DNA of 64,000 nt from contig JBCBOS010000023.1 of NCBI GenBank assembly GCA_039821145.1, positions 64,609 to 128,608 of the forward strand, written 5' to 3'. Every line of letters begins with the position of its first letter. Position 1 is the first letter of the stretch. This document shows, piece after piece, positions 50,673 to 56,058 of this stretch. The translations under genes and the position numbers were made by a program. This stretch comes from Bacteroidota bacterium (GTDB lineage Bacteria > Bacteroidota > Bacteroidia > Chitinophagales > Saprospiraceae). The notes below the pieces were generated by a model, which saw only the letters and a list, made by a program, of their open reading frames with translations, did no database searches and had not been told where the DNA came from.

Positions 50673-50877
50673 GTAAAATGAGCGTACAATGTCAAACATC
50701 ACAAAATACGAACGATCATTCGTTTGTGAAAGTTCTACGGCCAAAAAGAAAACCTGCCAGGCAATTTCTTTGGCAAAGGAGTACAATTGGCTTCGCCCAT
50801 GCATTTTGCTGGCCTCCACATTTGCCGTATTGTCCCTATATTTATCATCAGCCCGAACGCAAAAATGGAATGGACAA

Positions 50878-51876
50878 ATGAAACATCTGCTTCTCCCTAT
50901 CTTTCTTCTCATCAATTTTGGTGCATTTGGACAAAACAACTTTCTGTCCCAGATCAACCTCTACGAATTTCAGGATGCGGCATTGGGCAAAGTTGAGGTA
51001 GGCGTGTTCAAATCAGAAAAAAAAGGGCCAAAGCCCTTGGCATTGATCCTCAGTGGCTCTGGTCTGAAACCAACCTTTACCTACAATCTCGCTGACCAAC
51101 AGGTCTATTGCTCAGGATTCTGGGGCTTCACCCGATTCAAGGACGACTACCACATTGCCTACATCAACAAGGCAGGGATTCCCCTCTATGACTCCATCAA
51201 AAACAATGCTTTGCCCTATCCGGTGGATGGGACGGCCATCCAGAACAATACCCTCGATTGGAGAGCTGAATCAGCTTCCTTGGCCATCGATCAATTGATT
51301 GCTCAACTCAATCCAAGCAAAGTCTATGTGATCGGGCACTCGCAGGGCGGACAAGTGGCCCCCAAAGTAGCAGTCCTGAACCAGCATGTCGATAAGGTCG
51401 TCATGATGTCGGCCAATGCACTGGATCACATCTATGACAGGATTCTCCTCGCCAGACAAAAAGCACTCAACCGTTTGATGACACATGAAGAGGCCCAATA
51501 TGTGGTTGACAGCCTCTTTGCCATCCAAAGAGACATCCATCAAAACCCGACAAGCATTGAGAAGGAGTTTTGGGGAGAAGCGTACAGCAAGTGGTACAGC
51601 TATTCCAAAACAACGCCATTGGATCACATGCTCCAATTGGACATCCCCATTTTCCTCATCGCTTCTGGCAGAGATGTAGACGGCTCCTACATTGCAAATA
51701 CGGATTATGCCATGCTCGAATTCATTCGAAAAGGAAAAGGCAATCTGACCTACAAGGTTTACCCAAACTACGATCACATCTACATGGAAACCAAATGGAA
51801 ATTGGGAGAGGAAATTGGCCTCGGGTTCAAAGCCAATGAGGTGATCCAAGATGTGTTTACCTGGCTGCAACAATAA
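50878..51876 (+). CDS. Secreted alpha/beta-hydrolase (esterase/lipase-like)
   Basis: Signal peptide 'MKHLLLPIFLLINFGAFGQ'; nucleophile elbow 'VIGHSQGGQV'; 332 aa from the internal ATG. Confidence 0.7.
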   Translation: MKHLLLPIFLLINFGAFGQNNFLSQINLYEFQDAALGKVEVGVFKSEKKGPKPLALILSGSGLKPTFTYNLADQQVYCSGFWGFTRFKDDYHIAYINKAGIPLYDSIKNNALPYPVDGTAIQNNTLDWRAESASLAIDQLIAQLNPSKVYVIGHSQGGQVAPKVAVLNQHVDKVVMMSANALDHIYDRILLARQKALNRLMTHEEAQYVVDSLFAIQRDIHQNPTSIEKEFWGEAYSKWYSYSKTTPLDHMLQLDIPIFLIASGRDVDGSYIANTDYAMLEFIRKGKGNLTYKVYPNYDHIYMETKWKLGEEIGLGFKANEVIQDVFTWLQQ

Positions 51877-52031: not shown

Positions 52032-54881
52032 TTGCGAATGTACAAAGCAGAAGATTGCGGCCTGTTTATCGGATTGACGACCATGCCTTTTGGGCAGGAA
52101 CGCGCTTTCTATGAAAATGAAATCGCGCAGGGCATCTTCCGGCAGTACAAAGAAAGGCTTCAGCAGTTTGGGGACCCGACAGATGAGTCGGAAGCAGCGC
52201 AGGCATTTCACCAATATTTTTACCGCCCCAAAGCCTATCGACTCTTCGGCAATTTCGACTTGGCCGTCCTTTCCCTGGTAGACGATTTTGCCATGAGCAG
52301 CCGGGTGTTTCACCCCTACAGTTCGCTGGCCCAACAGGCGGCAGGCCATCGACCGGGCAGTTTCAAATACCAAACCATCACAGGCCCCGTTCCAGACTTA
52401 TCACACGCTCATCCTGCCAGCCGGGAAGAACACTTGTCGCCCTCTCCACTGATTGGGAGAGCCAAGCGAACCTTTCTGGCCAGCCATCAACAGGAACTGG
52501 CTGCTGATTCGGTCTATCCCTTCATTGGCATTTGCTCTCTCAAGATCAACAATGCCTTGCTCATCGGCGCAGGGGGGCGAAGCGTGCAGCTCGTTTTGCG
52601 GGCCTTGAAAGGGATGCTGGAGCAGAGCGAAGAGTACAAAGAGCAACGCCTGGACTACCTGATCCTGTCCTCCTTTTCCTGGAATGAAATCAATCTGATT
52701 GTATTTTCTGATAGCTACAAATGCATCAGCCGACAAATCCTTCGCGTGCGGGAGTTGGCCCTCCGAGATTTGCAGCATTTCGGCCAAGGCGATTTGTATG
52801 AAAAAACTTGCAGCGACAGCCTGCTGGGACAGTTCATTCGACAAAGAGGGATGGACAAAGAGGGATGGGAGGTAGCAGGGCATCACGTCTTTGTGGAAAC
52901 CCACAGCACATTGGGCTTCGACTTTGACTTGGTTTGTCACCCAGAATGGCTGGAGCAAAGACCAGATCATTTCAAGGAATGGCACGACATCAGTTCCGAT
53001 GACCTCAAGCTCTATCTTCGCTGGCACATCAAACCCGGACACCTGCAGGAAAGCCTTCGGCTGCTTCCACCACAGGCCAAACAGCGGATCGTCATTGGCC
53101 GGGGCGACATCATCCAGCCATTGCCCCAAGCCGACCTGACACAATTGCTGCAACAGCTCAATCAGTTGTCGTCGGAGCAAGCCAATGCATTTCGCCAACA
53201 CATTCGAAAAATCTACACCGTTCCAGAAATCATAGAATCCTCTGACCAGCTCCCTGGCAGCCCCACTTCTCCCCTCCACCTGGCCTTGACAGAAGAGGTA
53301 GGGACCACCTATGCCTTTTCGGTGGAGGAGATTGCAGAAGTTCGCAGGCTGTTGAAGCAGTGCCGGGTCTCCAAGATTTTGCTGGACAAGCTGGTCAATA
53401 TGTATGTCAACTTCAACGATGGCATTCAAGACCCCATCCTATATGGCTATTTCATAGAATTGCGTCCCTTTTTGGAGCACATCCAGCAGGAGGCCACATC
53501 CTTCCAATCTGCAGACAGCCCCTACCAAACGGTGAAGCAACTCAGCGAGGTCCTCCAACGCCTTTGCCAGGCCTTTGAGTTGGCGTACCGCAACCGCTTT
53601 CAGCAGAGTTACATCATGAATGAGATCACTGATTACAATCTGGAATTCAGCGGTGGCATTCAACAACTGGTCAGTGCCTTCGACGGAGCCTTCAAGGGAA
53701 TTTCGACAATTTTGGGATGCAAGGATCGCTTTTTGCCCATCGCCTACATCTCCAGCCATTCTGGCATAGAGTCCGACTTCTACACAGTGAAGCTGAACTA
53801 CTATCATTTGTTCCATCCAGAGTTTTTCGTGGCCGTGGCAACCCATGAGGCGAGCAACTTCTTTTTGGAGCGATTGGATACCGCCTCTGGCAATTTGGAC
53901 GAATACCTCGACCTGCACCGATTGTTCAACGACAAGGTCTATTGCAATGAGCACAGCATCCCCGATGCGGTCTCCTACTTTCCGGTAGACATCATCACCT
54001 ACTATCTGGGCTACAATACCAATGGCGAGTTGTTCAGCTATTGGCACTGGGGCAATTTTGTCTCCACCTCCTTGTATTACAATACGGATGGAAGCATCAA
54101 TGAAAATCTATTTGCCCAGCTCATGCTCCGCATCTTTTTGTTGCTGCAATATCGGAAAGAGGCCGACCAGCTGTCTGCCGACCGCCCCCCTTGTACACTG
54201 CTGGCGGATTGTTGGCGAAAGTACTTTGGTCCCATCACGAGTCTGGCCAAGAGTCTGTTGAACAACCCTCGTTTTCAGATTTGGTATTCTTATTCGGAGA
54301 CGATGGCCAAAGAAGCAGTCATCGACGACTTTACGGGCATCACGGAAAAGCGGCAAGCTGTCGAGGGCATCAATACCCGCGACTACTTTGCCCCCATTTT
54401 CGACGAAGTCTTGCTCAAGCAGCACGATGTGCGGGAGAAGGAGCGCTTTCTCCAACAGTACAGCCAGTTGCAGGAGCGAGAGGTCTTGTTGCTCTTGGGC
54501 CGCCTGGAAGAGATGGAGAATGTCTCCAATGACATGATGGATGCCTTCCGCAAAGGAATCATTTTTGAGCGGCGGGATTTCGATGTGTTGCAATCCAATT
54601 CCTTTCGGATACACAGCTTGTTTTACGCCTATCTCAAATTGCTGAAGCAACTCAATGGCGACCGCTTGGAGGTATTGCCGCGAAATGCCCAGGGGGAGCC
54701 ATCCCATGGAACTTCTTCCGAAAATTGTCTGTTATTTGATGGTATGGGAGGGGTATTCACCCGAAATTTCGCGTTGAGAAGAAGCTATTTCCGATACAGA
54801 TCATTGCTGATCCAATCCCTTTGGCACATAGCGACGAAAAGTAAGATCAAATTGTTTGGAAAGTTTGCCGACGGGCAATGA
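52032..54881 (+). CDS. Large (949 aa) cytoplasmic hypothetical protein of no recognisable family
   Basis: Long uninterrupted ORF with composition typical of the window; no Walker, SIR2, HEPN, nuclease or other motif I can identify; convergent with a small ORF and a TIR-domain gene. Confidence 0.5.
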   Translation: MRMYKAEDCGLFIGLTTMPFGQERAFYENEIAQGIFRQYKERLQQFGDPTDESEAAQAFHQYFYRPKAYRLFGNFDLAVLSLVDDFAMSSRVFHPYSSLAQQAAGHRPGSFKYQTITGPVPDLSHAHPASREEHLSPSPLIGRAKRTFLASHQQELAADSVYPFIGICSLKINNALLIGAGGRSVQLVLRALKGMLEQSEEYKEQRLDYLILSSFSWNEINLIVFSDSYKCISRQILRVRELALRDLQHFGQGDLYEKTCSDSLLGQFIRQRGMDKEGWEVAGHHVFVETHSTLGFDFDLVCHPEWLEQRPDHFKEWHDISSDDLKLYLRWHIKPGHLQESLRLLPPQAKQRIVIGRGDIIQPLPQADLTQLLQQLNQLSSEQANAFRQHIRKIYTVPEIIESSDQLPGSPTSPLHLALTEEVGTTYAFSVEEIAEVRRLLKQCRVSKILLDKLVNMYVNFNDGIQDPILYGYFIELRPFLEHIQQEATSFQSADSPYQTVKQLSEVLQRLCQAFELAYRNRFQQSYIMNEITDYNLEFSGGIQQLVSAFDGAFKGISTILGCKDRFLPIAYISSHSGIESDFYTVKLNYYHLFHPEFFVAVATHEASNFFLERLDTASGNLDEYLDLHRLFNDKVYCNEHSIPDAVSYFPVDIITYYLGYNTNGELFSYWHWGNFVSTSLYYNTDGSINENLFAQLMLRIFLLLQYRKEADQLSADRPPCTLLADCWRKYFGPITSLAKSLLNNPRFQIWYSYSETMAKEAVIDDFTGITEKRQAVEGINTRDYFAPIFDEVLLKQHDVREKERFLQQYSQLQEREVLLLLGRLEEMENVSNDMMDAFRKGIIFERRDFDVLQSNSFRIHSLFYAYLKLLKQLNGDRLEVLPRNAQGEPSHGTSSENCLLFDGMGGVFTRNFALRRSYFRYRSLLIQSLWHIATKSKIKLFGKFADGQ

Positions 54882-54901
54882 TGGATGGGAAGCAGTAAGC
54901 C

Positions 54902-55120
54902 TTACTGTTGTTCCTTTTGAGCGTTTGCATCAATCAAACGAGCCAAGACAGGGTCCTCACTGGTAGAGGCAAAAGACTTGCCCTTCAGTTCACTGCCTTT
55001 GCGCCCTGATACAATTCTGATGTCTTCTATCAGCTCGGAATAGCTTCCGTATCTGACAGAGTTGTGCATGTGTTGGCGCTTTTCGCTTTCAAAAAGTGCT
55101 CTGTTTAAAAACTTGAACAT
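54902..55120 (-). CDS. Possible small protein (72 aa)
   Basis: ORF 'MFKFLNRALFESEKRQHMHNSVRYGSYSELIEDIRIVSGRKGSELKGKSFA...'; 21 nt from the stop of the 949-aa gene; no other support. Confidence 0.25.
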   Translation of the reverse strand: MFKFLNRALFESEKRQHMHNSVRYGSYSELIEDIRIVSGRKGSELKGKSFASTSEDPVLARLIDANAQKEQQ

Positions 55121-55341
55121 GAGATTCCTCCTGCTTTTCTAAAAAAATGGTTCCATATACAACTATGGGAATCTATCCAAAGATAGATTTTTTGCCCCAA
55201 AAGCGAAAGTATATTTCTACTTTTTATTGATAATCAGACTCTTATGAAAAATATTCCTAATATCACTGTGGTCTCCATTTCAACAGCATTGCGGAAAAAA
55301 TAGTTTGGTACGAGCCTGACAAAGCCCCGCTTTAACAAATT

Positions 55342-55845
55342 TTAACCATCCTTTTGCCCCTTGGACAACAGATTGTAGATTCTCTGTACCACCTGTGTCC
55401 AGGCATCGTCCTTGAATTCTCCCCAGCGATTGACGGGCCGGAGGCGACGGTTTTCGTCTTTGGGCAGGATGTTGAGCTTGGACAGATCGTGAACTTCGTA
55501 GAGGAAATTGCGGATGAGGACCGGGACGACGGCAACATCGTCAGTGGGGTCGGCATGTCGGCGGAGGGCCAGAGGCATTTCAACGCTTCGGATGAATTCG
55601 GAGGAGATGTAGTCAGCACTGATGAGGAGAACGATGATGTCGGATTTGACCAGGCGGGTATTGATTTCTTTTTCCCAATCGGCACCGGGCGCCAGCATTT
55701 CATCGTACCACAAATCGACCAGACCTGAATCGACCAATACAGAGCAATGCTTGCAGAACTCCGCGCAGTAGTCCGCATCTACCCGGGTGTAGGATACAAA
55801 CAATTGTGGGATGGATTTTGAATCTGCTACTTTGCCGTCGGTCAT
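55342..55845 (-). CDS. TIR-domain protein (stand-alone TIR, ThsB-like size)
   Basis: 'PQLFVSYTRVDADYCAEF' is the βA 'F(I/V)SY' start, and 'DIIVLLISADYISSEFIRSVEMPLAL' matches the SxxYxxSxW(C)xxE αC motif of bacterial TIRs; 167 aa from the internal ATG (MTDGKVAD...). Confidence 0.75.
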   Translation of the reverse strand: MTDGKVADSKSIPQLFVSYTRVDADYCAEFCKHCSVLVDSGLVDLWYDEMLAPGADWEKEINTRLVKSDIIVLLISADYISSEFIRSVEMPLALRRHADPTDDVAVVPVLIRNFLYEVHDLSKLNILPKDENRRLRPVNRWGEFKDDAWTQVVQRIYNLLSKGQKDG

Positions 55846-55987
55846 TAAAGACTTGTTTAGAACGGAAAACGCCCATGGCCCATTCAATGGTATGTTTTGC
55901 GTTCAGTCAGTTACTCAATTGGACGAGTTGGCGCCATTGTGTGGTACCAACAGTGTGAAAGCGGTCGTAAAAATAGCATAAAATAGC

Positions 55988-56022
55988 AAAAGAGTGTAGT
56001 CCATCGTACAGACTACACTCTT
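55988..56022 (-). terminator. Rho-independent terminator downstream of rpsT (minus strand)
   Basis: 'agagtgtagtc catcgtaca gactacactct' is an 11-bp perfect stem; on the minus strand it is followed by 'tttgctattttatgctatttt'. Confidence 0.65.
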
Positions 56023-56058
56023 TTGAGCCAAGATTGTGCAAATGCGATCAGATACCTC

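Follow-up and report, generated by a model that had tools for sequence, protein, structure and literature searches.

Does the TIR-domain gene found in a 64,000-nucleotide stretch of a Saprospiraceae genome (Bacteroidota; contig JBCBOS010000023.1; the whole stretch is referred to here as the window) act alone, or is it part of a system together with the large gene that converges on it? The initial annotation of this DNA allowed either an unrecognised TIR-partner system or an orphan TIR. The locus contains three open reading frames (ORFs), all of which were recovered at the positions first reported. They encode a large protein of 949 amino acids (aa; hereafter BIG), the TIR protein and, between the two, a small basic protein (the product of the small ORF). 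The partner system is supported by recurrent linkage and by gene fusions, and the orphan TIR can be dismissed. The TIR gene and BIG are a credible candidate pair for a conflict or defence system not recognised before in bacteria. In the favoured reading, the module would be one of a larger set of undescribed conflict systems, most likely anti-phage and acting by abortive infection.

The genomic context of BIG was examined in loci fetched from species genomes (26), from metagenomes (46) and by exact protein look-up (7). Neighbouring genes were classified with our own ORF caller and locally built hidden Markov models, anchored by Pfam checks, and the census comprises those BIG loci, 55 in number, for which 1.5 kb or more of downstream DNA could be read. 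The locus counts include near-duplicate contigs (L003/4, L028/29, L037/38, L024/64, L050/71 and L009/41/47), and BIG loci are undercounted because the genome and metagenome scans were pattern-based. A TIR gene is found beside BIG in 18 of the 55 loci (approximately 15 of them non-redundant), always downstream and convergent. In addition, five BIG homologues (P0026, P0027, P0029, P0078 and P0082) have a TIR domain joined to their own C-terminus, so that the co-occurrence of BIG homologues with TIR genes, on which the first proposal had been made to depend, is borne out. No fused domain other than TIR was found in 16 long BIG homologues. At 20 of the 55 loci the partner is a metallophosphoesterase of 450–650 aa, usually co-directional with BIG and abutting it, and at seven it is an ECF-like sigma-70 protein of approximately 200 aa with Sigma70_r2/r4 domains. 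The type of partner tracks the BIG clade in a neighbour-joining tree, with few secondary exceptions within the TIR clade, in which a transposase (L006), a NACHT-LRR giant (L019) or a degenerate Metallophos_2-like gene (L027) is encountered. Between the window and L001, the locus most closely related to it, BIG is 68%, the TIR protein 69% and the small ORF product 65% identical, compared with 82–93% for the flanking housekeeping proteins; the three genes have thus changed in step with one another, and more rapidly than the genes around them. The recurrence of the convergent TIR gene, the five TIR fusions, the agreement of partner type with the BIG tree and the conservation of the small ORF argue that the adjacency is functional and not due to chance.

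The exchange of TIR in sister clades, where a metallophosphoesterase or a sigma factor takes its place, implies that TIR behaves as an effector and not as a signal-making sensor. It also undermines the analogy with ThsB of Thoeris that had been drawn at first, since the large protein is the constant element and the TIR is the one that is swapped. The phosphoesterase partners retain all of the catalytic motifs (DxH, GD, GNHD, H and GHxH) and match the PADLOC CBASS ‘Effector/Endonuclease’ model at 1e-15. A third small gene is conserved in the other types of locus as well, encoding approximately 145 aa after the phosphoesterase and approximately 116 aa after the sigma factor, with no Pfam match for either. 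An adaptor domain common to the C-terminal extensions of the long TIR partners and the phosphoesterase partners was considered and rejected (hhalign probability 0.2%).

Several individual loci show further variation (Table 1). In a metagenome-assembled Tannerellaceae genome (L022), BIG is broken into five fragments and the neighbouring metallophosphoesterase into two; this decay of both genes counts towards their linkage, and it reflects either joint pseudogenisation or assembly frameshifts. At L027, a BIG of the TIR clade (P0004, 45% identical to the window BIG) is followed by a co-directional 222-aa Metallophos_2-like protein, the metal-binding motifs of which look degenerate (SGIYLG, GNFI). 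A TIR-clade BIG with a small ORF of the same cluster as that of L051 is found without a TIR gene at L006, where the downstream region holds a YhgA-like transposase (Transposase_31) and three short ORFs, and this suggests loss of the TIR through insertion. Giant STAND proteins adjoin BIG homologues that have no TIR, phosphoesterase or sigma partner at L019, L035 and L039; one is a 1635-aa NACHT-pentapeptide-LRR protein and another, of 1409 aa, combines an N-terminus like that of an Mrr nuclease with a P-loop and WD40 repeats. At L077 and L078, the fused BIG-TIR gene is preceded by a gene of 153–159 aa; its product carries ERKYFHSR or QRYFHES in the C-terminus, similar to the conserved RRxYFxYR motif near the C-terminus of BIG (residues ~915–922 of the window BIG); this could be mimicry or coincidence.

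The TIR protein had been described as a TIR-only protein of about 167 aa, and this description holds: it matches Pfam TIR_2 (PF13676) over residues 16–113 with 48.2 bits (cutoff 28; E = 1.8e-12), and no second domain was found with Pfam. It also matches the PADLOC ThsB1 model at 1e-23, a model that is largely generic for TIR. Its start agrees with that of the L001 orthologue (MADGK). A profile built from the partner TIRs was compared with TIR structures in the PDB, among which Cat1 was the best match (3.6e-8), followed by L6 (2.7e-6) and AbTIR (3.8e-5). Residue E89 of the window TIR, which lies within the motif ...SSEFIRSVEMPLALRR in the residue context SVEMPLAL, aligns with the glutamate of the WCxxEL helix in Cat1 and L6 in the alignment of the profile with the PDB sequences, which involves no three-dimensional superposition. 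This glutamate is the catalytic residue of TIR NADases, and its equivalents are E642 of SARM1, E208 of AbTir and E135 of L6, in the α-C helix. As judged by this alignment, the window TIR keeps the catalytic glutamate and is predicted to be of the NADase type; the initial annotation had named its absence as grounds for giving up the proposal. The residue is present in most of the partner TIRs and in the fused TIRs. The TIR-like partners of the subclade that lacks it (Table 1) are approximately 310–366 aa long, carry a C-terminal domain of no assigned family and are without the usual W-D-x-G motif; these BIG-linked proteins are probably non-catalytic. In a word-indexed reciprocal search from the TIR side, which returned six proteins, the closest TIRs not linked to BIG were approximately 32% identical and had other architectures.

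The small ORF had been treated as a mere neighbour, a view that its conserved position, coding pattern and conserved leader now contradict; it is apparently a third component. An ORF of 53–103 aa occurs between BIG and the TIR gene, on the TIR strand, in every TIR-type (type-A) locus examined. The product in the window is basic (pI 9.2) and has no family match in Pfam, PADLOC or NCBIfam. Comparison with L001 yields 26 identical, 18 synonymous and 22 non-synonymous codons, and the differences fall mostly in the third codon position (18/13/31 for the first, second and third positions), a pattern of substitution that marks the ORF as coding. A weak motif, [KR]G-x-F ... [DN]P-x-[LI], is common to the small ORFs, and subclades share the short motifs WEKRG[LM]FS and LKWLV[KR][KR]. 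The leader of the small ORF is 78% identical to that of L001 over 163 nt, compared with 73–75% in the adjoining coding DNA. It contains the palindrome AATCTATC-TTTG-GATAGATT, which includes a TAnnTTTG-like box, and an AGGAGG sequence six nt ahead of the ATG (AGGAGG-N6-ATG) that is invariant relative to L001. A structured RNA was considered for this first spacer and rejected, as no Rfam match was obtained and folding was no better than that of shuffled sequences (z = -0.63). The folding result makes it more likely that the leader is a putative protein-binding (operator) or promoter element than a structured RNA. The small ORF is thus probably the third gene of the module, with its own regulated promoter.

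BIG is a cytosolic protein of approximately 110 kDa (pI 5.9). Its homologues align from residue 3, for which reason the ATG at 52,038 is a likelier start than the annotated TTG. The protein had been described as belonging to no recognisable family, in agreement with our searches: no family match was found in Pfam, PADLOC, NCBIfam or PHROGs, the family profile had no match among PDB sequences, and a domain scan of 31 aligned family members revealed nothing recurrent beyond the TIR domain of the fusions. A match to the NCBIfam model DS1_2_antiphage reached 11.5 bits where the cutoff is 315 (E = 0.12) and was counted as chance. A word-indexed search returned 30 homologues. When the profile was searched exhaustively against 1.84 billion cluster representatives, 925 matched at E ≤ 1e-3, and 508 of these at E ≤ 1e-30. 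BIG therefore represents a sizeable and undescribed family, of which no description was found in the searchable literature, in a search that was not exhaustive. The family occurs almost wholly in uncultured Bacteroidota (Saprospiraceae, Bacteroidales) and candidate phyla, WOR-3 included, and its distribution is patchy and rare; a pattern-based scan of 185,579 species genomes yielded 26 BIG loci only. A phage or plasmid origin was considered and rejected, as BIG had no match in IMG/VR (pattern scan) or PHROGs or by tblastn against phages or plasmids, with the exception of L046. There, a 922-aa BIG homologue is located immediately upstream of prophage genes that form a lambda-like head module (head-tail adaptor, portal, maturation protease, decoration protein and major head protein), in the slot expected for the large terminase.

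The structure of BIG was modelled with AlphaFold2 from the family alignment (pLDDT 85.4, pTM 0.90; pLDDT 83.9 for the C-terminal domain). According to the model, residues 1–400 form tandem ferredoxin-like α+β barrel units, approximately four in number, and residues 405–948 form an all-α domain of approximately 545 residues without a fold relative in the PDB. A Foldseek search with the model gave no match better than E = 0.017. Approximately 20 polar residues, mostly in the helical half, are at least 80% conserved among 214 sequences (Table 1), and they point to a putative binding pocket or active site. A zincin-like protease was considered on account of a THEASN motif and rejected; only E606 is conserved family-wide, the histidine is not, and no protease fold was found in the model.

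The module is embedded in ordinary chromosomal surroundings. The stop codons of BIG and the small ORF lie tail to tail, 20 bp apart. bS20 (rpsT) and the 2-oxoglutarate dehydrogenase E1 component (sucA) were confirmed among the neighbours, and genes for an α/β-hydrolase-like protein, a PaaE-like reductase, a TetR regulator and an S9 peptidase, assigned from their translations alone, lie on the upstream side of BIG. The earlier statement that no ThsA-type SIR2/SLOG protein, pAgo or cyclase is nearby agrees with our inspection of the locus neighbours in the window, some of the flanks being judged by reading of the translations. No transmembrane segments were predicted in BIG, the small ORF product or the TIR protein. 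The 395-aa α/β-hydrolase-like ORF directly upstream of BIG, which contains a GHSQGG motif and has no sequence relative in the PDB, is missing from the same slot in the syntenic loci L001, L002 and L031, in which the PaaE-like gene adjoins BIG. The genes have a host-like composition, as had been reported (BIG 51% and TIR 52% GC, compared with 50.4% for the whole window). The description of the two flanking spacers as unusually AT-rich could not be upheld: both values (Table 1) are inside the range of the 21 intergenic gaps of the window (median 43%, range 28–54%), so the spacers are ordinary intergenic DNA. The first contains the conserved promoter- and ribosome-binding-site-like region of the small ORF, and the second contains the strong terminator hairpin of rpsT, which is kept in L001 (82%) and marks the upstream limit of the TIR transcription unit.

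Table 1. Positions of the features of the BIG–TIR locus in the window, conserved residues of BIG and features of related loci.
Feature	Position	Strand	Remarks
BIG	52032-54881	+	949-aa ORF, TTG start
Small ORF	54902-55120	-	72 aa, same strand as TIR gene
TIR gene	55342-55845	-	ATG start, 167 aa
Leader/promoter region of small ORF	55121-55272	-	Non-coding, conserved relative to L001
Palindrome in small-ORF leader	55171-55190		Perfect, 8-bp arms
First spacer	55121-55341		34.4% GC
Second spacer	55846-56058		42.7% GC
rpsT terminator hairpin	55987-56025	-	18-bp stem
α/β-Hydrolase-like ORF	50689-51876		Directly upstream of BIG
Conserved BIG polar residues, first half	K171, E219, R240, K334, H337
Conserved BIG polar residues, helical half	N462, D467, N521, R522, D534, Q545, K555, N589, H592, E606, D653, R700, R884, D903, K938
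TIR-like partners without the glutamate	L007:11233-12168; L008:6350-7288; L033:8181-9281; L036:8191-9132; L037:8170-9111
Broken BIG and metallophosphoesterase	L022:2629-7101
Metallophos_2-like gene in TIR clade	L027:9125-9793
TIR-clade locus with transposase	L006:6505-9011
STAND giants	L019:11617-16524; L035:3295-7524; L039:7126-7824
Gene preceding fused BIG-TIR gene	L077:4179-4658; L078:663-1124
BIG homologue and lambda-like head module	L046:1501-8644

How might the three genes work together? In the reading that we favour, BIG, the small ORF and the TIR gene would form one functional three-gene module, in which BIG senses a trigger and turns on the TIR NADase while the small basic protein serves as an inhibitor or adaptor; we give this reading a little under an even chance. 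BIG would stay constant as the core and would probably be a sensor or regulator in the cytosol; its modelled N-terminal ferredoxin-like barrels and conserved polar residues suggest that a ligand or a triggering protein binds to it. The output would be exchangeable and supplied by the partner gene: a TIR NADase here, a catalytically intact metallophosphoesterase in a sister clade and, in a third clade, an ECF-type sigma factor. Once triggered, BIG would activate the TIR through direct contact or oligomerisation, and the activated TIR would consume NAD+, with the small basic protein possibly acting as an accessory, inhibitor or adaptor. Fusion of the sensor with TIR is the rule for TIR effectors, as in TIR-SAVED, SPARTA and Avs. 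TIR, calcineurin-like phosphoesterase and ECF-sigma helix-turn-helix modules have been described as interchangeable effectors in bacterial conflict systems, on TRADD-N proteins (Kaur et al., 2021; PMC8195603). The swapping of partners, the intact phosphoesterase motifs, this precedent and the sensor–TIR fusions are the grounds on which a BIG sensor with a TIR output is preferred. A broader proposal is that BIG is a new class of cytosolic sensor or regulator, composed of multiple ferredoxin-like barrels and a helical domain for which the PDB has no fold relative, and that it directly drives a TIR NADase, a metallophosphoesterase or an ECF sigma factor, in an anti-phage or conflict family of three subtypes that spans Bacteroidota, WOR-3 and other uncultured lineages, with the small accessory protein as its third component; this is offered more tentatively, as a possibility that we rate as somewhat improbable.

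A number of observations weigh against such a defensive sensor–effector module. The catalytic glutamate is replaced by asparagine or aspartate in one TIR subclade (L007, L008, L033 and L036–38) and in L030, so that NAD+ cleavage cannot be universal, and 10 of the 55 loci have none of the three partners beside BIG. BIG contains no recognisable sensor, NTPase or enzymatic domain, and its role is therefore deduced from neighbourhood logic only. BIG and the TIR gene are convergent and not co-transcribed. No defence-island signature was found when PADLOC was run on 108 neighbours, which gave scattered and mostly generic helicase, ATPase and radical-SAM matches and for which there was no control set. 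The module of the window sits between rpsT/sucA and metabolic genes and is syntenic in relatives: on its upstream side there is a PaaE-like gene in the window and in L001, L002 and L031, and a gene resembling aldo-keto reductases in seven other loci. The sigma-factor partner is also compatible with an ordinary regulatory system. An alternative is an ‘institutionalised’ regulatory module without a defence role, in which BIG, in Bacteroidota and neighbouring phyla, would sense stress or a metabolite, or act as an enzyme, with a sigma factor, a phosphoesterase or perhaps a non-catalytic TIR as its output in normal physiology. Stable synteny with apparently vertical inheritance in two Saprospiraceae-like lineages, the housekeeping flanks, the clades with an ECF-sigma partner or with a TIR lacking the glutamate, the absence of BIG from the phage and plasmid collections searched and the want of a clear defence island are all consistent with it. 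It is unlikely, however, because the module evolves much faster than its flanks, is rare and patchy in distribution and, in L019, L035 and L039, adjoins NLR-like STAND giants, and because conflict systems are typically marked by the swapping of effectors and by fusions with TIR (PMC8195603).

A direction of signalling opposite to that of the favoured reading is conceivable if the locus is Thoeris-like, with the TIR as a ThsB-type phage sensor that makes an ADP-ribose-derived signal and BIG as a new effector that binds this signal in its ferredoxin-like barrels. The ThsB-like size, the TIR-only architecture, the PADLOC ThsB1 match and the catalytic glutamate of the window TIR agree with this idea. 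Known Thoeris effectors, according to a recent survey (the Sorek survey), are very diverse and often of unassigned function (10.64898/2025.12.03.692087). The survey pipeline discarded TIRs outside multigene operons, and a convergent pair such as BIG and TIR could therefore have been missed. Yet BIG is constant and TIR variable, the opposite of Thoeris, in which TIR is constant and effectors vary; a signal synthase is not easily replaced by a metallophosphoesterase or a sigma factor; TIR is fused at the C-terminus of BIG in five homologues; the two genes are convergent; and SLOG, Macro, SIR2, transmembrane and nuclease modules are all missing from BIG. We judge a Thoeris-like mechanism to be quite improbable. 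Chance adjacency of an orphan TIR and an unrelated 949-aa gene, to which the convergent orientation, separate promoters and want of any shared annotation might lend some colour, is refuted by the recurrence of the convergent arrangement in approximately 15 non-redundant loci with different flanks, by the fusions in five homologues and by the equal rates at which the three genes evolve, and its probability is negligible. The reading in which BIG controls the TIR remains the preferred one, and a defence role for the module is plausible, as a candidate.

Should the module indeed act in defence or conflict, it would provide bacterial immunity with a new, unannotated core protein family of approximately 900 sequence clusters, the C-terminal domain of which is without a known fold relative. 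TIR would then be a plug-in effector of a sensor unrelated to SAVED, pAgo or STAND, and NADase and phosphoesterase outputs would be traded for a transcriptional output, the ECF sigma factor. Uncultured Bacteroidota and candidate phyla are poorly covered by operon-based, model-organism-centred screens, and a convergent gene order would evade pipelines that demand co-oriented operons. Even if it has no part in immunity, a conserved 110-kDa protein that has approximately 20 near-invariant polar residues and is without known relatives would merit structural and functional work.

Among known systems, the locus resembles Thoeris (types I–XI) in having a small TIR-only protein with a catalytic glutamate beside a larger protein, and for a PADLOC ThsB model this TIR is the best match. 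It differs in that BIG has no known signal-binding or killing domain (SLOG-SIR2, Macro-TM, caspase, DUF2270, DUF6650 or SLATT), in that the genes are convergent, whereas those of Thoeris are co-oriented in one operon, and in that BIG is conserved while TIR is replaceable and sometimes fused to its C-terminus. Sensors are combined with TIR effectors in TIR-SAVED (CBASS and type III CRISPR), Cat1, SPARTA TIR-APAZ and TIR-Avs/NLR, and the logic proposed here would be analogous, a sensor controlling a TIR NADase in trans or as a fusion. Unlike CBASS, Pycsar, SPARTA and type III CRISPR, however, the locus has no cyclase, pAgo or CRISPR locus seen nearby, the window TIR is without a second domain, and the PADLOC matches to effectors of these systems cover the TIR portions only. 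BIG likewise contains none of the SAVED, CARF, pAgo or STAND sensor domains, and it lacks the P-loop NTPase core (NACHT, NB-ARC or AAA) of STAND, Avs and NLR sensors. CalpL-CalpT-CalpS comprises the protease, the anti-sigma factor and the ECF sigma factor of type III CRISPR, in which the sensor controls the sigma factor via a small partner. This three-component layout resembles that of the clade with BIG, a sigma factor and the 116-aa gene and, by analogy, possibly that of BIG, TIR and the small ORF; BIG, however, has no Lon or SAVED domain and shows no sign of protease activity, and the small proteins are unrelated. The dimeric α+β barrels (chlorite dismutase/HemQ, DyP, ABM monooxygenases and the Lrp/AsnC RAM domain) are predicted to resemble BIG at the level of the fold only, with identities of 6–12%, Foldseek E values of at least 0.017 and no sequence-profile link, and BIG differs from them by its approximately four units and its 545-residue helical domain. 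The TRADD-N/EACC conflict systems, which are enriched in Bacteroidota and other complex bacteria, set the same alternative modules on one constant element (Kaur et al., 2021; PMC8195603). In contrast to these, neither BIG nor its partners gave any match to a TRADD-N, Death-like, caspase or EAD domain, and the effectors of BIG are mostly separate genes. By this comparison, the TIR protein is classed as a bona fide TIR-domain protein, and the locus as a candidate conflict system of modular build, in which a TIR effector is combined with a core protein not described before.

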